NCBI GenBank assembly: GCA_964385285.1
Contig: CAYLOJ010000001.1
Span: 88,537 to 152,536 of the forward strand
Direction of reading: 5' to 3'
Source of the DNA: an uncultured Gammaproteobacteria bacterium
GTDB taxonomy: Bacteria > Patescibacteriota > Patescibacteriia > UBA9570
Length of the DNA stretch: 64,000 bases
Position 1 is the stretch's first letter, and every line of letters begins with the position of its first letter. The translations under genes and the position numbers were made by a program. Of this stretch, positions 11,952-49,677 are shown piece by piece. The notes under the pieces were generated by a model, which was not told the origin of the DNA, made no database searches, and saw only the letters and a program-made list of their open reading frames with translations.

Positions 11952-12017
11952 CTACTGTTGTCTGAAAAAATCTTCCCACTAGCAACACTCCTGTTCGCTA
12001 GCACGGAGGATCCTACT

Positions 12018-12185
12018 ATGGATCACGACAGAGCCACGCGCATACCCGTTACACCACACACTGCCTCCACCACCACGGACGATCCTGATCACCCTGCCGC
12101 CATGAGCCTGCCACCGGGCAAGCGCAGCGCACAGGTGCCGGAACGGGCCTGTGGAGAGGTCGCCCTCCCGGTTTGGGAGTGGTAG
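12018..12185 (+). CDS. Small ORF (55 aa) inside GC-rich insert, preceded by a strong Shine-Dalgarno motif
   Basis: GGAGGA at 12005-12010, 7 nt before the ATG at 12018. Product MDHDRATRIPVTPHTASTTTDDPDHPAAMSLPPGKRSAQVPERACGEVALPVWEW has no recognisable family. The ORF track extends it 5' to 11958, but no Shine-Dalgarno motif lies there. Confidence 0.2.
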   Translation: MDHDRATRIPVTPHTASTTTDDPDHPAAMSLPPGKRSAQVPERACGEVALPVWEW

Positions 12186-12297
12186 CGGATTCGTAGTCGG
12201 AAGGGCAGGGCGGTGGTCTCAACCCCACTGCCCGCCCACACCCATCCCGCCGTTCAAACGGTATTTTTTATTTACCTGGTTTTCGTGTATACTGGCA

Positions 12298-12303
12298 ATA
12301 ATT
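12298..12303 (+). promoter_or_regulatory. Possible -10 box (TATACT) upstream of argH
   Basis: TATACT lies 26 nt before the argH ATG. No clean -35 at 17-bp spacing, so this is weak. Confidence 0.2.
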
Positions 12304-12329
12304 TGAATTATTAAGTAAGTGCACTCTGT

Positions 12330-13670
12330 ATGGCTCAACTTTGGAATAAAGGCTATAACATCAACCAAGAAATCCTTGAGTTTACGGTTGGAAATGATTA
12401 TGAGCTGGATCAGCTAATGATCAAGCACGATGTCTATGGCAGCATTGCACAAGCCGCCATGTTAACAAAAATTGGAGTACTAACGGCCGCGGAGTTCAAA
12501 AAAGTTCAGGATGCTTTACGCAATATCATTGCACTCTGGGAAGCTGGGAAATTTACCGTCCAGATGGAAGACGAAGATGGTCATACGGCTATTGAAAATC
12601 ATCTTGTCAAAACGTTAGGGGATCTCGGTAAAAAAATTCATACCGCCCGCAGTCGGAACGATCAAGTGGTCACAATGACACGCTTGTACACCAAAGAGAA
12701 GCTGATGAATGTCTACGGCCACAGCTTAACACTGGCTCAACACTTTCTAGATCTCGCCAAACGCTATCAAGCTGTCCCGATGCCAGGCTACACACATATG
12801 CAACGTGCCATGCCGACCTCTGGCGGTGTTTGGTTCAGTCAATATGCCGAAGCCATCCTGGATGATCTCGCGTTCTTGAAGACTGCCTTTGAATATAATG
12901 ATATGAGTCCGCTAGGCAGTGCAGCTGGCTTTGGAGTGAACTTCCCAATCGATCGCGCCTATACTGCCAAACTACTGGGTTTCAAAAAAGTGCAAAATAA
13001 TACGATGTACGTTTCTTACACCCGTGGAAAAGTGGAGGCAACAATCTTGTTCGCCTTAAATCAACTCATGCAGACCATGGCAAAATTTGCTAATGACGTG
13101 TTGATGTTCTCCATGTCCGAAACGGGCTTTGTGGAATTGCCGAAAGAGTACTGCACGGGGTCATCTCTGATGCCACAAAAACGAAACGGAGATGTCTTCG
13201 AGCTCACCCGCGGCAAAGCCAATATTATGCTAGGTCATCTGATTTCCAGTATTGAATTGCAAAATGTCCTGCTCTCTGGCTACAACCGTGATTCGCAGCT
13301 AACCAAAGATCTCCTAGTGAAAGCATTGCATCTCTACAGTAATACTGTAAAAGTGATGAGCACAGTAACCAGCGGCATTACGTTGAATGAGAAAAAATGT
13401 ATTGCCGCCTGCAGCCCCGAAATTTATGCGACTGACAAAGCCTTGGACCTAGTTAAACAGGGCATGCCTTTCCGCGATGCCTATCGCCACGTCGCAGCGC
13501 ATCTTGATGAATTAGAGGCGATTGATCCTGTTAAAAATATTAAACAGAAGCAGATTAATTTAAAACCCGCTACCGCTGCCTGGGCCAAACAATCACATTG
13601 GCTGACCACCGAACAAACCCATTGGAAGAAGACGATTCAAGCTTTACTGAAGTTGTCAAAACCCCAGTAA
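12330..13670 (+). CDS. argH: Argininosuccinate lyase
   Basis: Fumarate-lyase signature GSSLMPQKRNGDVFE, plus HTARSRNDQV and PGYTHMQRAMP blocks. These match ArgH rather than PurB. Confidence 0.85.
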   Translation: MAQLWNKGYNINQEILEFTVGNDYELDQLMIKHDVYGSIAQAAMLTKIGVLTAAEFKKVQDALRNIIALWEAGKFTVQMEDEDGHTAIENHLVKTLGDLGKKIHTARSRNDQVVTMTRLYTKEKLMNVYGHSLTLAQHFLDLAKRYQAVPMPGYTHMQRAMPTSGGVWFSQYAEAILDDLAFLKTAFEYNDMSPLGSAAGFGVNFPIDRAYTAKLLGFKKVQNNTMYVSYTRGKVEATILFALNQLMQTMAKFANDVLMFSMSETGFVELPKEYCTGSSLMPQKRNGDVFELTRGKANIMLGHLISSIELQNVLLSGYNRDSQLTKDLLVKALHLYSNTVKVMSTVTSGITLNEKKCIAACSPEIYATDKALDLVKQGMPFRDAYRHVAAHLDELEAIDPVKNIKQKQINLKPATAAWAKQSHWLTTEQTHWKKTIQALLKLSKPQ

Positions 13671-14612
13671 ATGGGTATAGTATTGCCAATGTCTACTGCT
13701 GTTACATTCCTCGGCAAGCGTTTTAAAAATCCGATCGTGCTAGCATCTGGCATTCTTGGTGTCACTGCTGCTTCCCTGAAACGCTGTGTCGATTTAGGTG
13801 CGGGCGGAGTGACGGTTAAATCGCTATCACTACAACCTCGTACTGGGCATGTGAATCCCACCATGGCCGGGCATGATTATTTTTTTATCAACGCCGTCGG
13901 ATTATCTAATCCCGGAATTGAGGAAGGGATTAAAGAATTAAAGAAATTCAAAACAATTTGTTCAGCACCACTCATTGGGAGTGTCTTTGCCGGCACCGTT
14001 CAAGAATTTGCGGATGTGACGAAACGGATTGTCACTGCACCGATTGATATTCTCGAAGTCGATATCTCTTGTCCAAATGTCGGAGACGAATTTGGTTCAC
14101 CCTTCGCCTATAGTGTAGATGCTGCCGTTGCCATTACGAAAGCGGTGAAGCGACAAGCCAAGCGCGTCCCCATCAGTGTAAAACTCTCACCCAATGCCTG
14201 GAATATTGGAGAAATTGCTGCCGCTTGTGAAGCGGCCGGTGCTGATGCCATTACTGCTATCAATACTGCCTCCGGAATGACCATTGATGCCACCTTCCAA
14301 GCCCCATTTTTGAGCAATAAGGTCGGTGGAATGTCTGGCCCAGCTCTCAAGCCCATTGCCTTAAAAGCGGTCTGGGATGTCCATTCTAGGCTCAAAAAAG
14401 CTCCAATCATTGCCACTGGTGGCGTGACCTCCGGCGAAGATGCTATTGAGATGATTCTAGCCGGCGGAACGTTGGTAGGTGTCGGTTCTGCAGCTTTCTG
14501 GCGTGGCGCTGAAGTGTTTGGCACAATTGTGAAGGAGATGGAGCAGTATATGAAAGCCAACAACATCAAAGAGATCAAAAGCTTGATTGGTAAAGCTCAT
14601 AAAGCCAAGTAG
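13671..14612 (+). CDS. pyrD: Dihydroorotate dehydrogenase catalytic subunit (class 1B)
   Basis: NPIVLASGILGVT...GAGGVTVKSLSL and the catalytic Cys in DISCPNV. Start overlaps the argH stop (TAAATG). Confidence 0.9.
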   Translation: MGIVLPMSTAVTFLGKRFKNPIVLASGILGVTAASLKRCVDLGAGGVTVKSLSLQPRTGHVNPTMAGHDYFFINAVGLSNPGIEEGIKELKKFKTICSAPLIGSVFAGTVQEFADVTKRIVTAPIDILEVDISCPNVGDEFGSPFAYSVDAAVAITKAVKRQAKRVPISVKLSPNAWNIGEIAAACEAAGADAITAINTASGMTIDATFQAPFLSNKVGGMSGPALKPIALKAVWDVHSRLKKAPIIATGGVTSGEDAIEMILAGGTLVGVGSAAFWRGAEVFGTIVKEMEQYMKANNIKEIKSLIGKAHKAK

Positions 14613-14614
14613 AT

Positions 14615-15418
14615 ATGAAACCCCGAGTTGCTGTACTAAAAAAAGTCACGAACGAAGCCAAGGATGTCAAAGGGTTTACCTTTGAGTTTGCGAACCTAAA
14701 CTCTCAGCCTGGTCAATTTGTCATGTTATGGATTCCAGGGGTGGATCAGAAACCGTTTTCCATCGCTGCCGATGATGGCAAGAGTTTTACGACCGTCGTC
14801 TTTAAACTGAAAAATTTTACCGAGCATCTCTTTAAGCTGAAACCAGGGGATAAGGTCGGTGTCACTGGACCATTTGGCAACCCCTACCATTGGAAACCCA
14901 AAAGCCATGTGATTGCGATCGGTGGTGGGTATGGGGCTGCGCCGTTAGCCTATCTCATTAATCGAGCCAAAGCCGATAACTGCAGTTATGAGCTATTGGT
15001 AGGAGCGCGCAATAAAGCCTTATTGCTTTATACAAATCATTTCCCGAAACATACTTATTTATCGACGAATGATGGATCGGCTGGGCACAAAGGGTTTATC
15101 ACAGAAGTGTTAGCTGAGCGTTTAGAACGACTGTCAAAAACCGAACGGAAAAATACGGTTGTCTACATGTGTGGTCCGGAGCCGATGGAATATGCTGCTG
15201 CTTTAGTCTGCAAACAATACGGGGTAGATAGTCAGATTAGTGTGGAGCGTTATATGAAATGTGGATTCGGGGTCTGCGGACAATGTTGCATCGACGATAC
15301 GGGTGAACGGATGTGCATCGAAGGACCCGTCTTAACTGGTAAGCACGCATTAACTCTTAAAGAATTCGGTCAGTATCATCGTGATAAATCTGGCCAAGCG
15401 CACACCTATGGTTCATAA
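14615..15418 (+). CDS. pyrK: Dihydroorotate dehydrogenase electron-transfer subunit
   Basis: FAD/NAD-binding fold followed by a C-terminal [2Fe-2S] Cys cluster (CGFGVCGQCC). Confidence 0.85.
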   Translation: MKPRVAVLKKVTNEAKDVKGFTFEFANLNSQPGQFVMLWIPGVDQKPFSIAADDGKSFTTVVFKLKNFTEHLFKLKPGDKVGVTGPFGNPYHWKPKSHVIAIGGGYGAAPLAYLINRAKADNCSYELLVGARNKALLLYTNHFPKHTYLSTNDGSAGHKGFITEVLAERLERLSKTERKNTVVYMCGPEPMEYAAALVCKQYGVDSQISVERYMKCGFGVCGQCCIDDTGERMCIEGPVLTGKHALTLKEFGQYHRDKSGQAHTYGS

Positions 15419-16013
15419 GGATCTTATCGACGCACTTTATCGTATTAACGCCGTCAAATTTGGTGAGTTCACTTTGAAGAACGGCATGCAATCGCCAATC
15501 TATATTGATTTGCGTGTAATCATCTCGTATCCAGATGTCTTGAAAATGATTGCCGGAGCCATGACGGAGCTGATTAAACATCACAAATTAGAATATAACG
15601 TTTTAGCTGGAATCCCATATACTGCATTGCCGATTACAACTGCGTTATCCTTGGAGCTAAACCAGCCAATGATCTACGCCCGCAAAGAAGCGAAAGCCTA
15701 TGGCACCAAAAAGAAGATCGAAGGCGCTTATACCGCCGGTCAAATCTGTTTGGTAGTGGATGATCTGATCACCACTGGTGAATCCAAGTTTGAAACGATC
15801 CAACCCTTTGAAGCTGAAGGGTTGATGATTCGTGATATCGTTGTACTGATTGATCGCGAACAAGGGGGCAGCAAAAAATTAGCCGATAACGGCTATCATC
15901 TCTATAGCGTGCTCACGCTAAATGATATCGTAAAACACTTAGTCAGCAACGGAACCATTCCGCCAGATTTAGAAAAAAAGATTCGAGATTTCTTAGCTGC
16001 TAATCATCTGTAA
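15408..16013 (+). CDS. pyrE: Orotate phosphoribosyltransferase
   Basis: PRPP-binding motif LVVDDLITTGESK. Start chosen at MVHKDLIDAL (KFGEFTLK follows). The ORF track starts at 15381. Confidence 0.85.
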   Translation: MVHKDLIDALYRINAVKFGEFTLKNGMQSPIYIDLRVIISYPDVLKMIAGAMTELIKHHKLEYNVLAGIPYTALPITTALSLELNQPMIYARKEAKAYGTKKKIEGAYTAGQICLVVDDLITTGESKFETIQPFEAEGLMIRDIVVLIDREQGGSKKLADNGYHLYSVLTLNDIVKHLVSNGTIPPDLEKKIRDFLAANHL

Positions 16014-16778
16014 TTGTGTATGACCTACGAAGCTAAATTACAAGCGGCAGTGAATCCAGCGGCGCGAGCGTTGCTCAAAACCGTTCTGGAAAAGGAATCC
16101 AATTTATCCGTGGCCGCAGACGTGACTACTTGTAATGAATTGATCACATTGATCCAGCAAACCGGGGATCAGATCGCTCTGCTCAAAACCCATATTGATG
16201 TATTGAGTGATTTCACTCCAGATTTAATCCCGACTTTGCTGGATCTAAAAAAACAATATAATTTTGTGATTTTTGAAGATCGGAAGTTTGCTGATATCGG
16301 CAACACGGTAAAACTGCAATACAGTGGTGGTGTCTATAAAATGGCTGACTGGGCAGATATTATTAATGCCCATGTGGTGCCAGGCCCAGGTATTATTGAA
16401 GGTTTATGGTCCATCGCTAAAGATAAAGGCGCTGGTTTGTTGCTCTTAGCGGAAATGAGTTCTGCTGGAAATTTGGCTAAAGGGGATTACACCAAAACCG
16501 CTGTACAGTGGGCTGAACAATACAGTGAATTTGTCATGGGTTTTATTGGCATGAAATCGCTCAGTAATAATCCACGTTTCATCACTATGACTCCAGGTGT
16601 GAACTTAGCTGATACCGGTGACGGCATGAAGCAGCAATACGTTACTCCTGAACAGGCAGTTCAAGGTGGTTCTGATATCATCATTGTCGGTCGCGGCATC
16701 TATGGTGCCAGTAACCCTGCTGAGGCCGCCAAACAGTACCGTGAAGCGGGTTGGAAAGCATACGCAACATTGCGATAA
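16014..16778 (+). CDS. pyrF: Orotidine-5'-phosphate decarboxylase
   Basis: FEDRKFADIGNTV, including the catalytic Lys, and the DxKxxD-type active site. Confidence 0.85.
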   Translation: MCMTYEAKLQAAVNPAARALLKTVLEKESNLSVAADVTTCNELITLIQQTGDQIALLKTHIDVLSDFTPDLIPTLLDLKKQYNFVIFEDRKFADIGNTVKLQYSGGVYKMADWADIINAHVVPGPGIIEGLWSIAKDKGAGLLLLAEMSSAGNLAKGDYTKTAVQWAEQYSEFVMGFIGMKSLSNNPRFITMTPGVNLADTGDGMKQQYVTPEQAVQGGSDIIIVGRGIYGASNPAEAAKQYREAGWKAYATLR

Positions 16779-16781
16779 ATC

Positions 16782-17558
16782 ATGCATAAGGAATACACAG
16801 ACCATATAGTCTTCGAAAAATTGTTGGTGTATTCAAATTATTATAAAAACTTGTCCGGTTTGATTCTAGGCTTTGCCTCTTTAGGTACTAGCAAGGTATA
16901 TAATATTGATACCTATACCTATTCTTCTATACAAGGTACTTTGGAATCAATACATGATATTTTAAAAAAAGGGCGGATCAATGATAGTTACGCTCTATTA
17001 AGAAAGTACTATGATTCGATCATTATTAATATCTATACTGTTTTATATCTTAAAGATCATGTGAGTGCTGAAGAGTTTATTGTCGAAAAAATTGATAATT
17101 GGCTTCAAGGAAGTGAAGCTTTACCAGAATATAGAGTAATGAATAATTACGTTCGTTCTTCAAATGATCTCAAGTCTCTTAATCATTTACTCTTTAAAGA
17201 CGATACGTATAAAAATATACGGGATCGTTGTAATAATCACGTACATTACAACTTTTTTCGCTACGTGCTTTTAAATGATAATGAAATAAACTTTGGCAAC
17301 AGAACTAAATCTTTAGATATTTTTTTAAAGGATTTAGATAATATATTTGTACTCCACTTTTGCTACTTATTTACAGTAAATCCACATTATATGGCATCTA
17401 CAGATTATGTGGATAGTCTAGATCTAGGCCTTATTGCTGATGAGAATTCACAATATTATGTAGCCCCATTTATACAAACAGCATTCAATGATATAAAAGT
17501 AAATCGACCCGACTTAGCAGAGGAAATAAAAAACAACTCTATAATGTACTTAGAATAA
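16782..17558 (+). CDS. AT-rich orphan hypothetical protein (possible HEPN-like Rx5H motif)
   Basis: 258-aa ORF with very low GC (roughly 28-30%) in a ~45% GC context. The product is rich in N/Y/K/I. It contains RDRCNNH (R-x5-H). No other recognisable motif. Confidence 0.45.
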   Translation: MHKEYTDHIVFEKLLVYSNYYKNLSGLILGFASLGTSKVYNIDTYTYSSIQGTLESIHDILKKGRINDSYALLRKYYDSIIINIYTVLYLKDHVSAEEFIVEKIDNWLQGSEALPEYRVMNNYVRSSNDLKSLNHLLFKDDTYKNIRDRCNNHVHYNFFRYVLLNDNEINFGNRTKSLDIFLKDLDNIFVLHFCYLFTVNPHYMASTDYVDSLDLGLIADENSQYYVAPFIQTAFNDIKVNRPDLAEEIKNNSIMYLE

Positions 17559-17562
17559 ACAA

Positions 17563-18867
17563 CTAAGCCAACTCGGCATCAAAGCGGAAAGGTTCAACGC
17601 GTGTCAATTTCACTTGTTGGAATGTTCCAACTAAATTGGCGTCTTCGGGGGCTTGGAAGGCGACGGTGACCTGGTGTTGATTACGACCTAACCAGTGATC
17701 TTTAGTAAACTTTTCTACTAAGATGGTATCCGTACTGCCAATACGAGGTTCTTGATTTAACATGAACGTCCGCTCTAACACGCGGGTAAGCTCTTCAAAG
17801 CGGCGCTTCTTTTCTTCGTGCGTAACATCATCAGTGAAACGACGGGCGGCGACGGTGCCAGGGCGAACCGAATATTGAGCGATGAAGGCCATGTCGTACT
17901 GCACGTATTCCATTAAGGTTTTTGAATCTTGAAAATCCTCTTCGGTTTCACCGGAGAAACCCACAATTACATCGGTGGAAAGAGAGACATTCGGAATACC
18001 GGCTTTGATATCATCAATCAGTTTCATATATTGCTCACGCGTATATGGCCGATTCATGCGGCGCAACACTTTGGAACTACCCGATTGAGCCGGTAAGTTA
18101 ATTTGTTTGCAAAGTTTCGGATATTTGGCGATGACCTCAATTACATCTGCGGTAAAGTCGCGAGGATGAGGCGCATGAAAACGGACCCAGAAGTCGCCAG
18201 GCAATTCGGCAATGGTGGCCATCAGTTGAGCAAAGTTTAATTCGGCTAATGTACCATCAGGATTCTTTTTATCCATGCCATATGAATTCACATTCTGACC
18301 CAACAGATGAATATCTTTATAACCTTTAGCAATTAAGTCTTTGACTTCCCGAATAATATCAGCCGAATCACGCGATCGCTCACGACCACGGGTATAAGGC
18401 ACAGCACAATAGGTACAGAACTTATCACAGCCTTTGGCAATCGGCACCCACGCCCGGAAGGTAGAATTATGAATCGGTTGAATATCAAAATACTTCATCT
18501 GATCACGCAGATTAACCGTTTCTTCTACGTTGGTTTGGGCCATCAGCAATGGCAACTTTGGCAACTCTTCAATATCAAACACTAGATCAAACTTCGGAGT
18601 CAGTTTCTGTTTATCATGTGGCAGCACACACCCTGTCAAAATCGTGGTGAGATCGCCGGATTGCTGACGTTTTTCCCAACCTTTGAACTTACCATAAATA
18701 CGATCCACAGCAGATTGTCGAATGGCGCAGGCAATCACCGCAATCACATTGGCTTGATCTTCATCTTCGACACGGGAATAGCCTAATTTTTCCAAGACCG
18801 TAGCCACGCGTTCTCCATCGGATTTATTGGTTTGGCAACCTAATGGCCAGACAAAATAGGTTTTCAT
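17563..18867 (-). CDS. miaB: MiaB/RimO-family radical-SAM methylthiotransferase
   Basis: MTTase N-terminal domain (MKTYFVWPLGCQTNKSDGE), radical-SAM CxxxCxxC (CDKFCTYC) and a TRAM-like C-terminus. Start set at MKTYF; the ORF track extends 13 codons further upstream over the fbp promoter. Confidence 0.8.
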   Translation of the reverse strand: MKTYFVWPLGCQTNKSDGERVATVLEKLGYSRVEDEDQANVIAVIACAIRQSAVDRIYGKFKGWEKRQQSGDLTTILTGCVLPHDKQKLTPKFDLVFDIEELPKLPLLMAQTNVEETVNLRDQMKYFDIQPIHNSTFRAWVPIAKGCDKFCTYCAVPYTRGRERSRDSADIIREVKDLIAKGYKDIHLLGQNVNSYGMDKKNPDGTLAELNFAQLMATIAELPGDFWVRFHAPHPRDFTADVIEVIAKYPKLCKQINLPAQSGSSKVLRRMNRPYTREQYMKLIDDIKAGIPNVSLSTDVIVGFSGETEEDFQDSKTLMEYVQYDMAFIAQYSVRPGTVAARRFTDDVTHEEKKRRFEELTRVLERTFMLNQEPRIGSTDTILVEKFTKDHWLGRNQHQVTVAFQAPEDANLVGTFQQVKLTRVEPFRFDAELA

Positions 18868-18896
18868 AGGCCGGGGGATTATAGAGGAAATGTGCC

Positions 18897-18925
18897 TTGA
18901 AATCAAGTGGCGGCAATGTTATAAT
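18897..18925 (+). promoter_or_regulatory. Sigma70-type promoter for fbp, leaderless-type
   Basis: TTGAAA (18897-18902), a 17-bp spacer, TATAAT (18920-18925), then only 8 nt to the ATG at 18934. No Shine-Dalgarno motif. Confidence 0.55.
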
Positions 18926-18933
18926 CCAGACAT

Positions 18934-19914
18934 ATGTTAAAACATCCTACATTATCTCAGTTTGTCTTAGAGCAGGAACGCGAATTCGGTGGATCTGGAG
19001 AATTTTCACAAATTTTGCTGGATATTGGAGTAGTCGGAAAAGTAATCTCTCATCAGGTCAATAAAGCAGGTTTAGTGGATATTCTCGGTGAGGCTGGAGT
19101 AGAGAACAGTTCTGGCGATACCGTTAAAAAACTCGATGTCCTCTCCAATGAACTATTTGTGAACTACCTATCTAGAGCAGGTCACTTTGCGGCACTGGCA
19201 TCTGAAGAAGAGACAGATATTGTGGTGGTGCCAGGCGCAGAGCAGGCCAAATATGTAATTGCCTTTGATCCCTTAGATGGTTCGTCTAATGTCGATTACA
19301 ATGTCTCGGTTGGTAGTATTTTTTCGGTGCATCGTCGCGTAACTGAACTGGGCACTCCTGCTACGATCGAGGATTTTCTACAAAAGGGTAAAGATCAAGT
19401 AGCGGCTGGATATATTTTATATGGCTCTAGCACAATGTTAGTGTATACAACGGGTCACAAAGTGCACGGATTCACCTTGGACCCAACCATTGGTGAATGG
19501 CTATTATCCCATGAAGATATCCAAATTCCTAAAACCTGTGATGTCTATTCCGCTAATGAAGCTTACATGCCGACTTGGTCCGAAGCAGCGCGCAAGTTTA
19601 TGGCTGATTTCAAAGCTAACAATCCAAAGGCCACTTCTCGCCATATTGGCTCCTTAGTAGCAGACCTCCATCGCAACTTATTGAAAGGTGGTTTGTACTT
19701 CCGTCCTTATGATAATAATGAAAAGCAATCCGCTAAGTTACGCTTGAACTACGAGCTAAAACCGTTAGCGATGATTGTAGAGCAAGCTGGTGGTTATACT
19801 ACAGCGGGCAAAGGTTCGATTCTCGATATCAAACCCGAAGCACTGCATTCTAAAAGCCCAATGGTGGCCGGCAATGCAGAGTTTGTGAAGCAATGGGAGA
19901 GTCTGCAATCCTAG
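18934..19914 (+). CDS. fbp: Fructose-1,6-bisphosphatase class 1
   Basis: FBPase class I blocks VDPLDGSSN-like (FDPLDGSSNVDYNVSVGSIF) and GKLRLNYE-like (AKLRLNYELKP). Confidence 0.85.
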   Translation: MLKHPTLSQFVLEQEREFGGSGEFSQILLDIGVVGKVISHQVNKAGLVDILGEAGVENSSGDTVKKLDVLSNELFVNYLSRAGHFAALASEEETDIVVVPGAEQAKYVIAFDPLDGSSNVDYNVSVGSIFSVHRRVTELGTPATIEDFLQKGKDQVAAGYILYGSSTMLVYTTGHKVHGFTLDPTIGEWLLSHEDIQIPKTCDVYSANEAYMPTWSEAARKFMADFKANNPKATSRHIGSLVADLHRNLLKGGLYFRPYDNNEKQSAKLRLNYELKPLAMIVEQAGGYTTAGKGSILDIKPEALHSKSPMVAGNAEFVKQWESLQS

Positions 19915-19939
19915 CCCTATAGAATCCTATGATCACAAA

Positions 19940-19961
19940 GCCCGGCGTCAGCCGGGTTTTT
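19940..19961 (+). terminator. Rho-independent terminator of fbp
   Basis: CCCGGC-gtca-GCCGGG followed by TTTTTT. Confidence 0.6.
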
Positions 19962-19987
19962 TGTCGATCACGGTATTGACAGCTGGC

Positions 19988-20395
19988 ATGAAAACATTTA
20001 TACAGTGTGCGCTTCCCACAAGCAAGGAGTGCCGGAAGAAGCTACTACTGATAGAAGACGAACCGCTGGTCGTCCGCGGTCTGAAGCGCTCACTCGAACG
20101 GGCTGGGTACGGTGTCCTCGTGGCAATGTCCCTGGCTGAAGCAAGAGAGCAGATTCAAGACCCCGACATCCGCTGGGTGTTGTGTGACACAAACCTCCCG
20201 GACGGCTCAGGGAATGAGCTGCACCATGAGTGGACTGTCACTGGACGGCTCAACAGCGAGACCCAGTTCATCGCCATGAGCGGTGACTGGATCTCCAATC
20301 ACAAAGCCGCGGCCTACTACCGGAGCACAGCCGTGCTCATGGTGGAAAAGCCGTTCCGCGACTTTAGAACGGAGGTGCTCAACAAGCTGAGCTAA
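19988..20395 (+). CDS. Stand-alone response-regulator receiver (CheY-like) domain protein, GC-rich
   Basis: REC domain with KKLLLIEDEP, the phospho-acceptor Asp in VLCDTNLPDGSG, and the conserved Lys in VEKPF. About 58% GC against ~45% in the flanks. The start is uncertain: the ORF track starts at 19961, and an AAGGAG lies inside the ORF. Confidence 0.55.
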   Translation: MKTFIQCALPTSKECRKKLLLIEDEPLVVRGLKRSLERAGYGVLVAMSLAEAREQIQDPDIRWVLCDTNLPDGSGNELHHEWTVTGRLNSETQFIAMSGDWISNHKAAAYYRSTAVLMVEKPFRDFRTEVLNKLS

Positions 20396-20462
20396 CCGGA
20401 GGAAGACGGGGCAGGGATCGTACACCACGATTCCTGCCTCGCTTCATTTTAATTAATCCAAT

Positions 20463-22226
20463 TTACCAAATAGCCTTAGTGCTGATATCAGTTTTAAGCT
20501 GCTCGACAAAAGCCGTTAGATCCACTGTGACAGTATCTTTACTGCCACGTTTTCGGACTGCCACTTGTTTAGCTTCAATTTCTTTATCGCCCACAACAAC
20601 TAAGTAAGGAACTTTTTCCGCGACGGCTTTGCGGATCTTATTGCCAACCGTTTCACTGGCCTCATCAATTTCTACGCGCACACCAGCGGCGTGTAACGCT
20701 GCCTTCACAGTTTTTGCATACTCAATATGAGTATCAGCTACCGGTAATAATTTCACTTGTACTGGAGCCAACCAAGTAGGGAAGTTACCAGCGAAGTGTT
20801 CAATAATGACACCCATGAACCGTTCAACAGAACCCATTACTGCGACGTGGATCATCACTGGGCGCTCTTCCTTGCCTTCTGCGGAAGTATAAGACAATGT
20901 AAAGCGTTCAGGCTGGTTCACGTCTAATTGAATCGTCGCTAACTGCCACTCACGACCAAGGGAGTCCACGGCCATATAATCGATTTTCGGACCATAAAAT
21001 GCCGCTTCACCTAGACCAATCACATACTCCAAGCCCTTGCTTTCCATCACGGAACGCAGTGCTTGTTCCGAAGCCTGCCAGGTTTCTTCCGTGCCAAGAT
21101 AGTTTTCCATATGAGCAGGATCATGTACCGAGAACCGTGGACGTAGTTCTAAACCAAATTTACTATAGAGTTCTGTAATAATATCCTGGGCTAATTCAGC
21201 TTCTTGTTGAATCTGATCTTTACGCGCAAACACATGAGAATCATCTTGTGTCAGTGAACGCACGCGCGTTAACCCCTGGATCTGACCAGTATTTTCATCA
21301 CGATAGTTGGTCGTAGTTTCAAAATAACGAATCGGGAGATCTTTGTAACTCCGCATTTGCGAAGCATAAATTTGCGTATGATGTGGACAGTTCATCGGCT
21401 TCATTACAAACGTGGCATCTGTTTTCTTACTGCTAACATGAAAGAGATCATCTTCAAATTTATCCCAGTGTCCCGAGGTCTTGTACAATTCAGCTTTAGC
21501 CATGTGGGGAATCCAAACGCGTTGAAAGCCACGTTGTTCGCGCAATTCACCAATGTAATTTTCTAACTCCCGACGAATCGTAGTACCTTTGGGTGTAAAT
21601 AATGGTAAACCAGCACCGACTAAATCTGAGAAGGTAAACAGATCAAGTTCTTTACCGAGTTTGCGATGATCGCGTTTTTTGGCTTCTTCAATTTGATGCA
21701 AGTACTGCTTGAGGACTTTAGGAGTAGGGAAGAGTAGACCGTAAATGCGCGTCATTTGCGGACGAGTACTGTCGGCCTGCCAATACGCACCGGCTAATTT
21801 AGATAGTTGCAAGCCAACGCTCTGGAGTTCCTGAGTATTATTAATGTGGCCACCTTCACATAAGTCAGTGAACGGTCCGGATTGATACAATGTCAAATCG
21901 CGACCATCTGCCGAAAACTTATCTATCAACTCTTGCTTAAAAGGCTGATCATGGAAGAACGCTTTGGCCTCAGCGGCCGTAACTGCTTTACGAACAAAAT
22001 CATGCTGACCAGCAATAATCTGTCGCATTTTCGCCTCGATCTTTTCTAGATCATCGGGCGTGATCGGTTGGGGTGGTAAGAGATCATAATAAAACCCGTT
22101 ATCGACCACTGGGCCAGTACCTAGTTGGGTGCCAGGAAATAATTCCAACACCGCTGCAGCCAACATGTGAGCAGCCGAGTGACGTAAACCATAAAGGGCA
22201 TCGTGTTCAGATTCAGCGGAAGCCAT
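20463..22226 (-). CDS. thrS: Threonyl-tRNA synthetase (lacking N-terminal TGS domain)
   Basis: Second-domain motif RHSAAHMLAAAV, class II catalytic core and a C-terminal anticodon-binding domain. 587 aa. Confidence 0.9.
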   Translation of the reverse strand: MASAESEHDALYGLRHSAAHMLAAAVLELFPGTQLGTGPVVDNGFYYDLLPPQPITPDDLEKIEAKMRQIIAGQHDFVRKAVTAAEAKAFFHDQPFKQELIDKFSADGRDLTLYQSGPFTDLCEGGHINNTQELQSVGLQLSKLAGAYWQADSTRPQMTRIYGLLFPTPKVLKQYLHQIEEAKKRDHRKLGKELDLFTFSDLVGAGLPLFTPKGTTIRRELENYIGELREQRGFQRVWIPHMAKAELYKTSGHWDKFEDDLFHVSSKKTDATFVMKPMNCPHHTQIYASQMRSYKDLPIRYFETTTNYRDENTGQIQGLTRVRSLTQDDSHVFARKDQIQQEAELAQDIITELYSKFGLELRPRFSVHDPAHMENYLGTEETWQASEQALRSVMESKGLEYVIGLGEAAFYGPKIDYMAVDSLGREWQLATIQLDVNQPERFTLSYTSAEGKEERPVMIHVAVMGSVERFMGVIIEHFAGNFPTWLAPVQVKLLPVADTHIEYAKTVKAALHAAGVRVEIDEASETVGNKIRKAVAEKVPYLVVVGDKEIEAKQVAVRKRGSKDTVTVDLTAFVEQLKTDISTKAIW

Positions 22227-22233
22227 AGTGTTT

Positions 22234-23298: not shown

Positions 23299-23306
23299 GC
23301 GGGCTA

Positions 23307-26684: not shown

Positions 26685-26721
26685 AATGGATGTGGCAGCA
26701 TTATAACAACTGTGATATAGT

Positions 26722-27264: not shown

Positions 27265-27293
27265 GAATAGGTAAACCATTGATCTAAACGAAC

Positions 27294-38338: not shown

Positions 38339-38356
38339 TATAGCTAGACTAACATG

Positions 38357-40728: not shown

Positions 40729-40740
40729 AAGGGGTAGTAA

Positions 40741-42234: not shown

Positions 42235-42278
42235 ATCTCTTTCATTATAGACGACTTTATGATACAGTTCAACCCGTT

Positions 42279-44373: not shown

Positions 44374-45606
44374 TTGAGTTCTATGAAAAAAATCGCCCTA
44401 TTGTTCGCTGTGTCCGTGCTTTTCCCAGCTACGTTAGTGCGTGCGGCCGACAAGGCGGACTTAGCTGACATCCAGGCTAAATTAAAAGAGAAGCAGCAGG
44501 CCTATGATGACCTCCAATCCAAAATTGATGTCTACGAAGAAAACTTAAAGTCAAAGCAGCAAGAAAAAACTACCCTGAACAGTCAGGTGGAGGTATTGGA
44601 TCAAAATATTGATCTCACCAAATCAGAGATGGAGCAGACGGAAATTGAAATTGATAGTTTGGGCTTAGAGATCGACACGCTGCAGATTACTCTCAATGAT
44701 ACACAAGACACGATTGAATCGCATCAAGGTCATATGGAAGACCTCATTCGTGATCTGTATGATTACGACCAGCGCACCTATTTAGAGATTGCCTTATCCC
44801 ATTCGACATTATCAGATTTTTCCACTCAGGTAGAGTACACAGAAAGTGTGAATGATCAGTTCCGCAGTGCTGTCGATAGTTTAAAGCAACTAAAAAAACA
44901 ATTAAAAGAAGATAAAGAAGACCTTTCTGCAAAGCAAGATGCCGAGGAACAGAAAAAAGTGGAATTGACGACTCGCCAAGAGACGTTACAAGGCGAAATT
45001 GATTACAAAACTGGTTTGCTCGCCACAGTCGAAAACGATGAGAGTAAATTTCAACAGCTGATCAAAGATATTCAGCAAGAACAGGAAGGTTACAATGCTG
45101 AGATCTCACAATTGGAAAAATCGGCTCGTGCTACGTATGATGAAATCAATGCTGGAAAAACGGACGACAGTGGCAATGTGACCGATACCTTACCCAGTGA
45201 ATTTGATCCTATCTGGCCTGCGAGTTGTATTGTGACGACCACCTTTCATGATCCTAACTACATTTTTCGTGCTTCCTTTGAGCACGACGCCATTGATTGC
45301 GCCGCTCCACAAGGCACACCACTAAAAGCTGCTGATAGTGGGGTAGTGAGTGTGACGCGTTTTGATGGAACTTCCAATTACGCCTACGTCTTGATTGTAC
45401 ATGCTGATAATTTTTCAACTGTGTATGGTCATGTGAGCGCCATCTATGTCGAGCCTGGTGAAGTGGTACAAAAAGGTCAGATTATTGGAGCAATGGGTGG
45501 CTTGCCCGGCACCCCTGGCTCTGGTGCCTACACAACCGGACCACATGTACATTTTGGTGTACGCTTGAATGGCATTCCTGTGGATCCGTTGTTGTACTTA
45601 CCATAA
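44374..45606 (+). CDS. M23-family peptidase with N-terminal coiled coil (EnvC-like)
   Basis: Signal peptide, a long coiled coil, and a C-terminal LytM domain carrying HVHFGVRLNG. Confidence 0.75.
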   Translation: MSSMKKIALLFAVSVLFPATLVRAADKADLADIQAKLKEKQQAYDDLQSKIDVYEENLKSKQQEKTTLNSQVEVLDQNIDLTKSEMEQTEIEIDSLGLEIDTLQITLNDTQDTIESHQGHMEDLIRDLYDYDQRTYLEIALSHSTLSDFSTQVEYTESVNDQFRSAVDSLKQLKKQLKEDKEDLSAKQDAEEQKKVELTTRQETLQGEIDYKTGLLATVENDESKFQQLIKDIQQEQEGYNAEISQLEKSARATYDEINAGKTDDSGNVTDTLPSEFDPIWPASCIVTTTFHDPNYIFRASFEHDAIDCAAPQGTPLKAADSGVVSVTRFDGTSNYAYVLIVHADNFSTVYGHVSAIYVEPGEVVQKGQIIGAMGGLPGTPGSGAYTTGPHVHFGVRLNGIPVDPLLYLP

Positions 45607-45627
45607 ACAGATCCATATAAAGCGAAA

Positions 45628-45693
45628 GACCCTGAAAGACTGTCGTTGAATGGCACCAAGTTACGGTGCAATTCACACTAGTCTTTCAGGGTC
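45628..45693. repeat. 14-bp perfect inverted repeat with 38-nt spacer at the island boundary (possible terminator for the minus-strand gene)
   Basis: GACCCTGAAAGACT (45628-45641) pairs with AGTCTTTCAGGGTC (45680-45693). On the minus strand it is followed by TTTCGCTTTATAT. Confidence 0.4.
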
Positions 45694-45711
45694 ATCGCAT
45701 TCATTGCAGCA

Positions 45712-47169
45712 TCACCACCAGCGGAGCGTGACGTACGGTCCGACTCGCCCCACCAGCTGGAAGCCGACGGGAGTCTGGAACGTTGCCTCCACCTCACCGG
45801 CTTTGGTGTACAGCGTCGTGGGCAGAGAGGCGCCGTTGGTGTAGCGCATCTCCAAAGCTCCGAAGACGCCGACGTTCCAGCCGTAGCGCTCGCCCGTGTG
45901 TTGACCAACACCAGCACGCAGGCCAGGACCATACCAAGGCATCATCTGCACCTGGGTGAATTGATTGTGGTTTGAGCCACAAAGCATATTCAGGTCCGAG
46001 CCCTCTTCACAGTTGAACACAGTCGGACCGAAGCCCGCCATGATCAGCGGATTGATCCGGTACTCCCACGACTTGCCGAGATCGTGGTGGAGCACCGGTC
46101 CGAAGCCCACGTAAACATCTGGCACGATGGTGCCTGCCGCCTTGTCCTCGTTGATCAAGGCCCCGGCGAGAGCTACGTAGATCTGCTGGCTGTACTGCAG
46201 CTGGAGGAGATCGAACTGGAGACCGGAGCTTGCCCAACCCAGCCGGTTGCCGTTGGCACTGATCGTGACGACCGGGATTGGCAAAGTCACCGCACCGAAC
46301 GGGTGCACCTGCAGCGCGGGAGCGGCGGAGGCAACAGGAGCCGTGGCAGTGAACAGCACGTTGTCCGGCAGTTTGGGCGCGTACGTGCCCTTGCCGTCGA
46401 ATCCCACCACTTCATAGAATTGGCAGCTTCCGCTGACCAACTCGTAGGTCGTTTTGGGAGTGCTGACTCCACGCTGATTGGGATCGCTCACGCTCTTGGT
46501 CACCGTCTTGTAGACGGCGACGAACCAGCGACCAGCCCCGTACAGGGTGTCACTGGTCGCCTTGCCCGAGATCCCGAGCGGGCTGACGGCAGCATCCAAT
46601 TTCTTGGGGCACTGCTTCGCCGTCGCTTCAGCGAGGTCGCGGATGCGAACGTACCCAGGCTGCACCTGTGGAATCTGGATATCCAAATCCAAGAAGTACA
46701 GCTTCTTGTCTGGCGCCCAGCTGATTACAGGCTTGTAAACCTGGTCAACCTGATGCTCGACGACCTGGCGGGGCTGGCAACTGTCGGGTTCGAGAACCCA
46801 GCTGTTACGATCCACCCGATGGTAGACCCCTACATAGTAGGTGTCACCGGGGGTGAGGACGTAGTCATCGCTGGAGTACCGGACGTCCGCGAGTGACCGC
46901 TTCCAGGGATGGAAGAGGTTGCCGTTGATGTCGACCGGGTCTGGAGCAGCCGGACAACTCCGGTTGATGTAGACCGCGACCAGGTAGTTCGCCGGAATGT
47001 AGTCCGCCTTGTTGATCCTCAAGTCGGGCTCCGAGAACCGGAGGTTGATCTCCTGGTTCGTTCGGTCGATAGCGGTCGCATCCTGGGCCCGAGCCACCGG
47101 CATGGTGACGAGAAGGGTAAGGAGGCAAGCCGCCAGCACGAGCAGGGAGCGGGTGAGAGAGAGCAGCAC
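45712..47169 (-). CDS. GC-rich secreted protein, possible outer-membrane beta-barrel
   Basis: GTG start preceded by GAGGTG. Signal peptide (LLVLAACLLTLLVTMPVARA). The C-terminal half is Gly/aromatic-rich with alternating hydrophobics and ends ...TLRWW. About 65% GC. Confidence 0.5.
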   Translation of the reverse strand: MLLSLTRSLLVLAACLLTLLVTMPVARAQDATAIDRTNQEINLRFSEPDLRINKADYIPANYLVAVYINRSCPAAPDPVDINGNLFHPWKRSLADVRYSSDDYVLTPGDTYYVGVYHRVDRNSWVLEPDSCQPRQVVEHQVDQVYKPVISWAPDKKLYFLDLDIQIPQVQPGYVRIRDLAEATAKQCPKKLDAAVSPLGISGKATSDTLYGAGRWFVAVYKTVTKSVSDPNQRGVSTPKTTYELVSGSCQFYEVVGFDGKGTYAPKLPDNVLFTATAPVASAAPALQVHPFGAVTLPIPVVTISANGNRLGWASSGLQFDLLQLQYSQQIYVALAGALINEDKAAGTIVPDVYVGFGPVLHHDLGKSWEYRINPLIMAGFGPTVFNCEEGSDLNMLCGSNHNQFTQVQMMPWYGPGLRAGVGQHTGERYGWNVGVFGALEMRYTNGASLPTTLYTKAGEVEATFQTPVGFQLVGRVGPYVTLRWW

Positions 47170-47374
47170 GAAGCACCTCGTTTCGCTTGGGTTATTGCTG
47201 ATGGAACACTTTCAATGAACGCAATGGACGAACTATTCGCCCAAACGAACTGATCATGAATGGAATCATGCTCAACTCATTTGGGTGGGCCGGCAGGGGA
47301 ATGCAGAACAAGTCATACACGCCCCCACCGACCGATTCCTCCTCAGGAACCCTTAGATACAGACACCCAGTCGG

Positions 47375-49417
47375 TTAGGGACGACGGCGGCGCAACGAGA
47401 GCAGCAGAATCGCGACCCAACTCCCGCTCGAGGCGAACCCCAAACGGTTGTTGCAGCCACAGCCAGTGCCGTAGAGAACAACACCCTTGCTGCTCCCCGT
47501 GTCATCCATTCCGGAATCCACGATTCCAGTGTCGTCGGTGTCACCCGAATCGCCAGAGTCACCGCTGTCGCCGGAATCTCCCGTGTCGGACTGATGGGCA
47601 TCACTCCCATCACAATCCTGGTCGATCCCGTCGTCCGGAACCTCTTCGGCACCGGGGTTGATGGTGGGGTCGGCGTCGTCACAGTCTCCTGCATACTCGC
47701 TGTAGCCGTCACCGTCAGAGTCGTCACACTCCGTGGAATCGTCTGCCACGCCCGAGCAATCCTGGTCCACACCGTCGCACGTTTCCGTAGCTCCGGGATG
47801 GATGGACGCATCCGTGTCGTTGCAGTCATCCGTGGTGTAGCTGTCGCCATCCACGTCATCCTCCAAGCAGTCGAGGATGCCGTTGCCGTCCACGTCATCT
47901 ACCCAATCTTCATCGGTGTAGCTGTCGCAGTCGTCGTCGATGCCGTTGCAGGCTTCGATGATCGCAGGGGACTGGGCCGAGTTTGCGTCGTTGCAGTCGC
48001 CCGCATCTTCGCTGTAGCCGTCGGAGTCGTCGTCGTAGCAGCTCGTGCCCTCGTCGATCGTGCCGTCACAGTCCTGGTCCACACCGTCGCACACTTCCGT
48101 AGCGCCGGGGAAGATGTCAGACCGCGTGTCGTCACAATCGGAGCTCAGGTCGTAGCCATCTGCGTCGATGTCGTCGTCGTCCGTGAGACCATCACAGTCC
48201 TGGTCCACACCGTCGTAGGCGATTTCGCTGGCGCCGGGGTTGGTACCGGCGGCGTTGTCGTCGCAGTCCGTGGTGTAGTCGTACCCGTCACCGTCCACGT
48301 CGGTCAGGTCGCTGCCGGAGCAGTCCTGGTCGATCCCGTCGTAGGCCGTTTCCGGCGCGCCCGGGTAGGTGGAAGGAGCACTATCATCACACTCCTCACA
48401 GCCCATGTAACCGTCACCGTCCACGTCGTCCTCGTCGCCGAGGCCGTCGCAGTTGGAGTCCACACCGTCGCAGCTCTCGCTGGCGCCGGGGAGGATGGTC
48501 GCATCGGTATCGTCACAGTCGCCCTCGTCCTCCTGGTAGCCGTCACCGTCGTCGTCGTAGGCGATCGTGCCCTCATCGATGATGCCGTCACAGTCGTTGT
48601 CCACCCCGTCGTAGTTCTCGTAGGCGCCGGGGTAGGCGTCCGCGTTGGCGTCGTTGCAGTCGTCACAGGCCAGGTAGGTGTCACCGTCGGCGTCGACCTC
48701 GTCGCCAAGGCCGTCGCAGTTGGAGTCCACACCGTCGCAGCTCTCGCTGGCGCCGGGGAGGATGGTCGCATCGGTATCGTCACAGTCGCCCTCGTCCTCC
48801 TGGTAGCCGTCACCGTCGTCGTCGTAGGCGATCGTGCCCTCATCGATGATGCCGTCACAGTCGTTGTCCACCCCGTCGTAGTTCTCGTAGGCGCCGGGGT
48901 AGGCGTCCGCGTTGGCGTCGTTGCAGTCGGTCCCACCCACGTCAGTGGAGTCGTAGCCGTCACCGTCGACATCGGTCAGGTCGCTGCCGGAGCAGTCCTG
49001 GTCGATCCCGTCGTAGGCGATCTCGACTTCGGCGAAACCATCGGCATGACCGTTGCAGTCATTGTCGATGCCGTCACCGCAGACCTCCGTCGCCGCAGGG
49101 TTAACCGCAGCATCGGTGTCGTTGCAATCGTCGGACCCGCTGTATCCATCACCGTCGTTCTCATCGGTGGTGCACAGCGCTGCAGGCTCCCAATCTTCAT
49201 CGTAGAGCCCGTCGCAGTCTTCGTCCTCGGCGTCACCACACTGCTCGGTGGCACCGGGGTAGATGGTGGGGTCGTAGTCGTTGCAGTCGACGGAGTCGTC
49301 GAAACCGTCGAGATCCACATCCGCCGCCATGGCGAAGTGGGGGAAGAGGGTGGCGATCATGACCAGCAGGGCGCAAAGCGCTCGACAGGTCGACTTCTGG
49401 TTGAGATTGAACCGCAT
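47375..49417 (-). CDS. Cys/Asp-rich secreted repeat protein with MopE-type metal-binding repeats and a MYXO-CTERM-like tail
   Basis: GGAGG Shine-Dalgarno motif 5 nt before the ATG. Signal peptide. About ten repeats of DGDGY..DCDDxDAxxxPGAxExCDGxDxDCDG. C-terminus is DSGDSGDSGDSG...GCGCNNRLGFASSGSWVAILLLSLRRRRP. About 68-70% GC. Confidence 0.6.
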   Translation of the reverse strand: MRFNLNQKSTCRALCALLVMIATLFPHFAMAADVDLDGFDDSVDCNDYDPTIYPGATEQCGDAEDEDCDGLYDEDWEPAALCTTDENDGDGYSGSDDCNDTDAAVNPAATEVCGDGIDNDCNGHADGFAEVEIAYDGIDQDCSGSDLTDVDGDGYDSTDVGGTDCNDANADAYPGAYENYDGVDNDCDGIIDEGTIAYDDDGDGYQEDEGDCDDTDATILPGASESCDGVDSNCDGLGDEVDADGDTYLACDDCNDANADAYPGAYENYDGVDNDCDGIIDEGTIAYDDDGDGYQEDEGDCDDTDATILPGASESCDGVDSNCDGLGDEDDVDGDGYMGCEECDDSAPSTYPGAPETAYDGIDQDCSGSDLTDVDGDGYDYTTDCDDNAAGTNPGASEIAYDGVDQDCDGLTDDDDIDADGYDLSSDCDDTRSDIFPGATEVCDGVDQDCDGTIDEGTSCYDDDSDGYSEDAGDCNDANSAQSPAIIEACNGIDDDCDSYTDEDWVDDVDGNGILDCLEDDVDGDSYTTDDCNDTDASIHPGATETCDGVDQDCSGVADDSTECDDSDGDGYSEYAGDCDDADPTINPGAEEVPDDGIDQDCDGSDAHQSDTGDSGDSGDSGDSGDTDDTGIVDSGMDDTGSSKGVVLYGTGCGCNNRLGFASSGSWVAILLLSLRRRRP
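48440..48930. repeat. Near-perfect tandem duplication (~267-bp period, ~221 bp identical per copy) inside the repeat-protein gene
   Basis: The string ggccgtcgcagttggagtccacaccgtcgcagctctcgctggcgccggggaggatggtcgc...gcgttggcgtcgttgcagt occurs at about 48442 and again at about 48708. It encodes the duplicated 89-aa block DCNDANADAY...CDGLGDE. Confidence 0.7.
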
Positions 49418-49677
49418 GAAACCTCCGCGGTGTTAGCGTGAACCGAATTCACTAGACGAATCGGATCTGTAGTTATCTGTATCTTTTTTTGGGAAAGAAC
49501 ATTCAAACACAGCCCGCACCAATGATCTAAACTAATCACTCGTGTGAACTGTATTTTTGCCGTTAGACGGCTCGGCACAATACTAGATTTTAACCAAAAA
49601 GTCAAGCCATCATTGAGCAGGACTATAGACCTGCGGATGGCACGTAATTACAAAGGGGATGGAATAGAAAGAATATA

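Follow-up and report, generated by a model that had tools for sequence, protein, structure and literature searches.

Three GC-rich pieces as probable accessory-gene slots in a Patescibacteria chromosome

How does DNA of foreign appearance come to lie between the core genes of a bacterial chromosome without breaking any of them? This question is raised by a stretch of 64,000 nucleotides (contig CAYLOJ010000001.1, assembly GCA_964385285.1, positions 88,537 to 152,536; hereafter the window), which is native, core chromosome of a Patescibacteria bacterium of the candidate phyla radiation (CPR) near Kerfeldbacteria and Uhrbacteria. Three pieces of it are GC-rich, and a preliminary description had regarded natural transfer from a myxobacterium-like donor, a metagenomic chimera and deliberate construction as compatible with them. 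The analysis presented here indicates that the three pieces are probably natural accessory-gene slots, at fixed intergenic positions of a native CPR chromosome, that hold foreign-type genes. These genes would be high in GC, would use Shine-Dalgarno (SD) motifs and would be of types typical of double-membraned bacteria; the slots of pieces 2 and 3 would have been filled before the present species separated, while a more distant relative keeps the piece-3 site empty. The pieces are listed below (GC1, GC2 and GC3, GC content at the first, second and third codon position; ORF, open reading frame).

11997-12245, plus strand: piece 1, a 65% GC intergenic mini-gene between pyrC and a Lyase_1/ASL-like gene
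19961-20440, plus strand: piece 2, 56-58% GC, GC3 0.70, with an orphan response-regulator receiver (ORF 19988-20395)
45607-49677, minus strand: piece 3, the whole insert from the stop codon of an M23 peptidase gene (45606) to the terminator hairpin of an FtsQ-like gene (49678-49709), encoding the proteins P3a and P3b

Composition of the pieces and their recurrence in sister genomes

Sustained runs of 150-bp windows with at least 58% GC are confined to 11967-12298, 20000-20450 and 45644-49471, apart from borderline exceptions inside pyrC (11444-11877) and at 51421-51587. Each of the three pieces is intergenic between host ORFs and no host ORF is broken, as had been described; the span of 12000-49450 originally given for the pieces consists mostly of ordinary host DNA, and piece 3 ends at 49677 and not at 49450. 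The pieces have a GC content of 56-65%, against a window background of 45-46%, and a GC3 of 0.70-0.80 against 0.34-0.53 in host genes. GC1 (0.62-0.65) and GC2 (0.44) of the island genes are also raised over host values (0.55 and 0.39), which fits either equilibration in a genome of 60-65% GC or a locus-wide GC-biased process. The description of the pieces as compositionally matched holds insofar as their GC-normalised di- and trinucleotide signatures correlate with one another (r=0.96 and 0.71 between piece 2 and P3a; 0.61 and 0.50 between piece 1 and P3b) and not with the host (r from -0.15 to 0.42, host against host 0.93-0.98); it carries little weight, pieces 1 and 2 being very short, and sequences of 250 and 440 bp cannot show one common donor.

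Translation signals also set the pieces apart. An SD motif (GGAG, GAGG or AGGA at -18 to -4) precedes 1 of 52 host starts, and the mean duplex energy of these starts with the anti-SD sequence is -1.0 kcal/mol, weaker than that of random host 20-mers (-2.1). The corresponding energies are -9.5 kcal/mol for the piece 1 ORF, -7.2 for P3a and -10.2 for P3b. In sister genomes, none of the host genes examined (19 in one set, 8 in another) reaches -6 kcal/mol or lower, while most cargo genes lie between -6 and -12. The opposite SD usage noted earlier is therefore strong for these three ORFs and ambiguous for piece 2, in which AAGGAG precedes AAG AAG, with no canonical start, and the in-frame ATG at 19988 lacks an SD. 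The idea that host genes are leaderless is plausible for a subset only, namely some 8-12 operon-first genes bearing a -10-like hexamer about 9-17 nt upstream of the start (three of them an exact TATAAT). According to published work on some Parcubacteria (RNA 2022, PMC9297842), the anti-SD motif at the 3' end of 16S rRNA could be detected in only about half of them, and one subgroup is believed to lack it. The host genes without SD described here are consistent with a lineage that does not use SD pairing; the island genes are SD-led, and the 16S rRNA 3' end of this genome lies outside the window.

Sister loci for piece 3 were recovered through FtsQ and P3a homologs, on contigs from JGI, ENA, Logan and NCBI assemblies and from different samples (identities are to the window proteins).

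L163-L165, FtsQ 75%: FtsQ, a membrane protein of host GC, the conserved leader and a MopE gene of 62-65% GC
L166/L167, FtsQ 76-77%: FtsQ, the same promoter and leader, and a GC-rich MopE gene whose product has an additional domain at the N-terminus
L168/L169, FtsQ 60-61%: empty site, where the gap is 69 bp wide, the FtsQ hairpin and the stop of M23 are 16 bp apart and GC-rich DNA is absent
L170, M23 73-74%, GluRS 81%: a MopE C-terminus with the tail GSGCGCSS...RRRV, the protein P0169, then M23
L171, M23 88-89%, GluRS 89%: a MopE C-terminus (78% identity with P3b over residues 390-593), the protein P0170, then M23

Seven further contigs (L163-L167, L170 and L171) have GC-rich island sequence in their FtsQ/M23 gap, and P0169 and P0170 are homologs of P3a, 28-33% identical depending on the alignment method, with a GC3 of 0.84 and 0.82 beside an M23 gene of GC3 0.36. 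The terminator hairpin of the empty site is the same as that of the window, and this locus was assembled by both ENA and Logan. In L163-L165, the intervening membrane protein has a weak, sub-threshold match to GT87, and the MopE gene is preceded by GGAGGG and starts with MRFILNL; L163 and L165 share the P3b N-terminus MRF(I/N)LN. Eight other contigs, of different samples and assemblers, reproduce the two junction types of piece 3 (FtsQ-leader-MopE, and a P3a-family gene beside M23) and the arrangement of piece 2. Since these junctions recur in independent contigs, a chimera or a construct is not supported for pieces 2 and 3, which appear to be neither assembly errors nor engineered inserts. 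The synteny check against relatives, a test that the preliminary description had itself named, finds both pieces at the same sites in sister species, which favours a natural acquisition older than species separation and does not support recent inserts specific to this contig.

The extent of piece 3 follows from blastn against L171 taken together with the empty site. The similarity of the M23 flank (78%) ends at 45605, exactly at the M23 stop; 45606-47267 has no DNA similarity at all; the spacer at 47268-47371 is 95% identical; and the MopE gene beyond it returns to 78%. These zones therefore define the inserted segment as 45607-49677, including a 260-bp leader of host-like GC.

In the case of piece 2, the ORF matches PF00072 (E=4.9e-12, 46.4 bits against a cut-off of 30.2), and the acidic pocket, the phospho-acceptor Asp, the Thr/Ser and the Lys of receivers are all present, pointing to a receiver of one domain whose phospho-acceptor pocket is intact. 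No partner histidine kinase lies nearby among the scanned ORFs, none of which contains a HisKA or HATPase domain. The same ThrRS/FBPase gap of the sister contig L001 holds a receiver ortholog (1995-2345; 64% GC, GC3 0.81) that shares the motifs IEDEP, LCDTNL, AMSG and EKPF, is 34-35% identical in amino acids, against 78% for ThrRS and 74-75% for FBPase, and starts with AGGAG, 5 nt and TTG behind promoter-like hexamers of its own. In L014 (Kerfeldbacteria), syntenic over 10968-26753 of the window, the gap is occupied by a different GC-rich, SD-led ORF (77 aa, 56% GC). Because of the homologous receiver in L001 and the different ORF in L014, the slot is regarded as conserved and its content as variable; no empty ThrRS/FBPase site was seen, the gap being filled in all three genomes. 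Piece 2 also contains a promoter-like TTGACA-17-TATACA (19976-20004) and a hairpin (about 20410-20439); its AAGGAG occupies 20023-20028, with AAG AAG at the place of the TTG start of the L001 ortholog. The gene may begin at a non-canonical codon, may have a mutated start or may use the upstream ATG 19988, which falls inside the promoter-like hexamer pair.

Piece 1 contains an SD (GGAGG, 12005-12009), 8 nt of spacing, a 55-codon ORF (12018-12185) and a strong G+C-rich hairpin (about 12203-12237) followed by a T-run. Its ORF has no Pfam or NCBIfam match. From this layout it would be a mini-gene of 55 codons that has an SD and a terminator of its own, and it could represent either a small gene or what is left of an earlier cargo gene; the provenance argument from sister loci covers pieces 2 and 3 only. 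A structured RNA or riboswitch was discarded, as no Rfam match comes near the gathering score and folding z-scores are -0.3 and -0.5 relative to shuffled sequences. In L014, pyrC directly adjoins pyrD, with neither piece 1 nor the ASL-like gene, whereas the pyr operon of the window is interrupted by piece 1 plus this gene of host GC.

The surface module of piece 3 and its divergence

The elements of piece 3 are arranged as follows.

45628-45693, between the convergent M23 and P3a genes: 14-bp perfect inverted repeat, its arms 38 nt apart
45712-47169, minus strand: P3a, secreted protein of 485 aa with a signal peptide; 61% GC, GC3 0.77, SD GAGGTG, C-terminus ...RWW
47268-47371, minus strand: conserved spacer of about 104-105 nt between P3a and P3b, holding a 23-bp hairpin
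47375-49417, minus strand: P3b, secreted protein of 680 aa with a signal peptide; 63% GC, GC3 0.80, SD GGAGG at 49422-49426
49418-49677, minus strand: leader and promoter of P3b, about 42% GC, host-like

P3b matches PF11617, the 'putative metal-binding motif', with E=1.7e-120 (393 bits, Pfam cut-off 27) over twelve MopE-type Cys-rich repeat stretches, and its sole PDB match is MopE (2VOV). Its C-terminal tail consists of GCGC, a hydrophobic helix and RRRR, ending in ...YGTGCGCNNRLGFASSGSWVAILLLSLRRRRP, and has the tripartite layout of Cys motif, helix and Arg cluster; similar tails are found in L170, L171 and P0068, a protein 65% identical to P3b across 40% of P3b, whose N-terminus resembles by inspection that of the L166/L167 MopE proteins. 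Named MopE-repeat relatives are mostly from Myxococcota, and the best MopE matches outside the clade are 42-48% identical. P3b shares with the Myxococcota MopE/PF11617 surface proteins that carry MYXO-CTERM the twelve repeats, the signal peptide and the tripartite Cys/transmembrane/Arg tail; it differs from them in that the tail lies below the TIGR03901 and TIGR03382 cut-offs, no myxosortase is found among the scanned window ORFs, and the gene resides in a CPR chromosome. MYXO-CTERM membership was rejected on the hidden Markov model score, as the P3b tail gives no match to either model and that of P0068 remains below the cut-offs (13.3 bits against 20; 13.4 against 15.85). Inside P3b, 267 nt are duplicated in tandem (48390-48923, 96% identity), a sign of recent in-place repeat expansion or a possible site of assembly collapse or expansion. 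On a Uhrbacteria contig of about 50% GC (L081, PCYM01000003.1, 1-4132), a MopE-repeat gene of 1024 aa and its neighbour, with 63-67% GC and strong SD, form an island at the contig end; since the neighbour is no homolog of P3a, this contig was not counted among the sisters and serves only as a second case of a GC-rich MopE gene in Uhrbacteria.

P3a has no Pfam, NCBIfam or PDB sequence match, and in a set of about 15 billion proteins its relatives do not exceed 33% identity. An AlphaFold model from an eight-sequence alignment, of medium confidence (pLDDT, the predicted local distance difference test, 73), consists of an N-terminal beta domain and a C-terminal eight-stranded barrel. As the modelled protein combines the barrel fold with a C-terminal aromatic residue, P3a is predicted to carry an outer-membrane-type eight-stranded beta-barrel. 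Compared with the small eight-stranded outer-membrane barrels (NspA, the OmpA/OprF N-domain, PagL and OmpW), it adds an N-terminal beta domain of about 230 residues and shows no sequence similarity to solved structures. The two-gene layout of piece 3 is also reminiscent of TraA/TraB, which mediates outer-membrane exchange and kin recognition in Myxococcus xanthus through a two-gene operon of a polymorphic surface receptor and an outer-membrane partner with hypervariable alleles; the TraA receptor has a signal peptide, Cys-rich repeats and a Cys-type C-terminal tag (PMC3325183). This likeness is an analogy only, the hypervariable part being here the barrel protein. TraAB membership was rejected, as P3b, P3a, P0068, P0169 and P0170 lack any PA14, TIGR04201 or OmpA/PF00691 match.

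A promoter-like TTGACT-17-TATTGT is located upstream of P3b (49605-49577), with a clear counterpart in L166/L167 only. The block TTGGTGCGGGCTGTGTTTGAATGTTCTTTCC (49488-49522, minus strand) is common to L163-L167 and is kept even in L163, where the extra membrane-protein gene intervenes between ftsQ and the leader. RNA structure in this leader was unconvincing (-8 kcal/mol). The inverted repeat at 45628-45693 is probably a bidirectional terminator, and a different long hairpin stands at the equivalent place of L170. The spacer at 47268-47371 shares 95% of its positions with L171 and 81% with L170, despite the saturation of synonymous sites in the flanks; its 23-bp hairpin is invariant, and a second hairpin presents compensatory changes. 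It has no Rfam match, is present among the fetched loci at the FtsQ/M23 locus only, and could be an RNA element or a recombination anchor of the cassette. A phage origin of the spacer was rejected for want of an IMG/VR match.

Island genes diverge far more than their surroundings between sisters (28-35% amino-acid identity, against 73-89% for flanking genes). P3a is 28% and 33% identical to P0170 and P0169, respectively, where flanking core genes are 74-89% identical, and the MopE segment shared with L171 stands at 78% where the core flanks reach 89%. Identities within the P3a family do not follow the tree of the flanks either: they are 33% between window and L170, 28% between window and L171, and 27% between L170 and L171, all of them near noise level. 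Since 45606-47267 is bracketed by the 78%-identical flank and the 95%-identical spacer, the P3a gene with its terminator behaves as a cassette bounded by conserved DNA, the hypervariable part of the island. Slot content would turn over by homologous recombination in conserved anchors; the barrel cassette would be anchored in the M23 gene at one end and in the spacer of about 105 nt at the other. Piece 3 as a whole would be a cell-surface module transcribed from the conserved promoter and leader downstream of ftsQ, in which P3b may be a Cys-rich repeat protein that is exported by Sec, binds Ca/metal and ends in a Cys-type sorting tail, and P3a a highly polymorphic partner with an outer-membrane-type eight-stranded barrel. 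Such a module would probably serve contact with other cells or with a host, and would be subject to diversifying selection.

The host chromosome

The identity of the host was established through relatives of the window ThrRS, GluRS and FtsQ, which are Patescibacteria metagenome-assembled genomes, including Kerfeldbacteria and Uhrbacteria; many of them carry the wrong label 'Gammaproteobacteria' in third-party assemblies. Look-ups of window proteins for exact copies returned no match. The window contains a pyrimidine operon (carA, carB, pyrB, pyrC, pyrD, pyrK, pyrE and pyrF) and further core genes (GatB, FBPase, ThrRS, DnaE, FtsW, ribosomal protein L25, Fmt, Def and PriA), and also encodes GluRS, the M23 peptidase, the FtsQ-like protein and FemAB; SerRS, GreA, PBP2 and MreBC were assigned through similarity to annotated genes of sister contigs. 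No tRNA gene and no Rfam family are found in the window. The M23 peptidase is 68-89% identical in amino acids to those of sister genomes. The host genes that flank the pieces are these.

10968-11951: pyrC, 5' of piece 1
12330-13670: Lyase_1/ASL-like (argininosuccinate-lyase-like) gene of host-like composition, within the pyrimidine operon directly after piece 1
18934-19914: FBPase, flank of piece 2
20463-22226, minus strand: ThrRS, flank of piece 2, 3' end facing the gap
44374-45606, plus strand: M23 peptidase with coiled coil, flank of piece 3; GC3 0.43, without SD
49762-50913, minus strand: FtsQ-like POTRA protein, flank of piece 3; terminator hairpin at 49678-49709

A second compositional anomaly, opposite in direction to the GC-rich pieces and likewise positionally conserved, lies at 16782-17558, where an ORF of 258 aa between pyrF and a radical-SAM (MiaB-like) gene has 30% GC and no Pfam match; the syntenic stretch of L014 (14550-15000) is also AT-rich (29% GC). 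In addition, pyrE (15381-16013) has no tblastn match in L014, where an uncharacterised ORF of 214 aa occupies the syntenic place.

Another junction varies among these genomes. SerRS and FemAB are tightly joined in the window, their genes overlapping at 53982-53985, whereas the junction contains a GC-rich (56-59%) radical-SAM gene and two small ORFs in L163 (5097-6610) and an IS200-like Y1 transposase in L167 (2655-3194). Judging from these sequences, it appears to be another variable slot of the clade. The pattern of SD-led, GC-rich intergenic genes extends to this radical-SAM island of L163 and to the MopE gene of the Uhrbacteria contig.

Competing origins and biological meaning

The hallmarks of horizontal islands are found in part: composition is deviant, presence contrasts with an empty site for piece 3 and with L014 for piece 1, and mobility hallmarks are missing. 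In agreement with the preliminary description, no transposase, integrase or recombinase domain was detected among the window ORFs scanned with Pfam. It has been reported that islands are common in Patescibacteria, that most transfers are not recent and that donors are often not recovered (PMC12455944, mSystems 2025). The window pieces share with those islands the nature of compositionally deviant accessory DNA in streamlined CPR genomes; they differ in having no mobility genes, tRNA or repeats, in their fixed positions across species, in a GC3 of about 0.8 with SD in an SD-less host, and in the replaceable cassette. Overall, the finding is a variant of horizontally acquired islands, unusual for its positional conservation, its persistent foreign composition and its SD use in an SD-less host. 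Of the earlier proposal of transfer from a myxobacterium-like donor, the natural origin stands for pieces 2 and 3 and a Myxococcota flavour is reasonable for piece 3, given the MopE relatives and the tail layout; no close donor emerged and the tail fails the MYXO-CTERM model.

Several observations weigh against the reading of the pieces as slots filled by foreign genes. No donor sequence was found for the island, and no traces of an insertion mechanism (integrase, transposase, tRNA or flanking repeats) were found; around piece 3 there are neither flanking or terminal repeats nor target duplications. Piece 1 has no homolog in any fetched locus. CPR cells are generally considered to be without an outer membrane, which would make the role of an outer-membrane-type barrel hard to see. 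Finally, synonymous sites of the flanks are saturated even relative to the closest sister (proportion of synonymous differences, pS, 0.75-0.77; identity at fourfold-degenerate sites 0.31-0.40), and by a two-state amelioration argument a vertically inherited gene should by then have lost most of its excess GC3. The fourfold-site GC of MopE, which seems to co-diverge, is nevertheless 0.69-0.76 in the window and the closest sister, against 0.44-0.52 in the flanks. With saturated flanks and a MopE gene that is still GC-rich, a passive relic of one old transfer therefore fits poorly. The GC may persist because genes are imported, or alleles replaced, again and again from a high-GC pool, because gene conversion is biased at recombination hotspots, or because of selection tied to SD-dependent translation.

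The last two bring us to the proposal that the genes are native to the clade pool and are kept GC-rich by a locus-specific force, whether GC-biased conversion or codon and mRNA selection of an SD class. The positional conservation of the slots, the GC that stays high beside saturated flank sites, the conserved promoter, leader and spacer, and the tiny P3a family, both of whose extra traced members are at the same CPR locus, speak for it, as does the MopE gene of 67% GC on a 50% background in another Uhrbacteria genome. We nonetheless consider it unlikely, since GC1 and GC2 are shifted as for a genome of about 60-65% GC, the gene types are specific to diderms (a barrel, a MYXO-CTERM-like tail) with named relatives mostly in Myxococcota, and the site is empty in L168. 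Moreover, we know of no conversion bias of about 40 GC3 points described in bacteria.

A recent one-off transfer from a single high-GC donor into this genome only would account for the matched oligonucleotide signatures, the retained SD motifs and the GC3 of 0.70-0.80. Such an event is very unlikely in view of pieces 2 and 3 occupying the same sites in sisters whose core flanks are only 73-89% identical, and of island genes that diverge more than the flanks between these sisters. Still less probable is an assembly chimera, in which GC-rich foreign reads were joined into a CPR contig. In its favour, the composition steps are sharp, and sister contigs end at or in the island: L083 (8960-8999) and L085 (2271-2305), two independent AMFJ01 records of another metagenome assembly, stop 35-40 bp past the M23 stop, where the island begins, and other sister contigs break inside the MopE repeats. 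Against it, these breaks are explained by the internal repeats; both piece-3 junctions and the piece-2 layout are reproduced in independent assemblies, and an internal block of 4 kb would need two precise false joins exactly at what is a 69-bp gap in a relative that retains the empty site (L168/L169). Deliberate construction from cloned inserts is extremely unlikely, for the sites near some boundaries (GCTAGC at 11997, GGATCC at 12008, GAATTC at 49445 and AGATCT at 49755, which the preliminary description had rightly reported, and also CCGCGG) are at chance density (16 six-base palindromes per kb; 0-2 within 40 bp of each of the six junctions, two having none), while the pieces match no plasmid or vector record, no vector scars, selection markers or synthetic adaptors are seen at the junctions, and the same islands occur in environmental metagenomes of several projects.

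The preferred reading, that of natural accessory-gene slots, can be extended to a host-contact module repeatedly re-acquired from a high-GC double-membraned partner, for instance a Myxococcota-like host, an extension that we judge quite unlikely. The Cys-rich repeat protein and the barrel would then dock to, or insert into, the outer membrane of the partner, and continuing gene flow from it would be the reason for the foreign GC3 (about 0.8) and SD, for alleles of 27-33% identity and for identities that depart from the tree. If this were true, such islands would be sequence-based pointers to the hosts of uncultivated CPR bacteria.

As for the contig itself, it deserves trust as natural CPR chromosome, certainly where pieces 2 and 3 lie, and its GC-rich pieces should be spared by binning and decontamination trimming. 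A foreign composition that outlasts the synonymous saturation of its flanks conflicts with the simple view that transferred genes ameliorate towards their host. In terms of the biology of the group, an SD-less Patescibacteria clade of 41-48% GC would maintain intergenic slots for SD-led secreted and surface genes of GC3 0.7-0.9 that diverge faster than the core, and an outer-membrane-type barrel in a lineage thought to be without an outer membrane would be a candidate symbiont-host interface.

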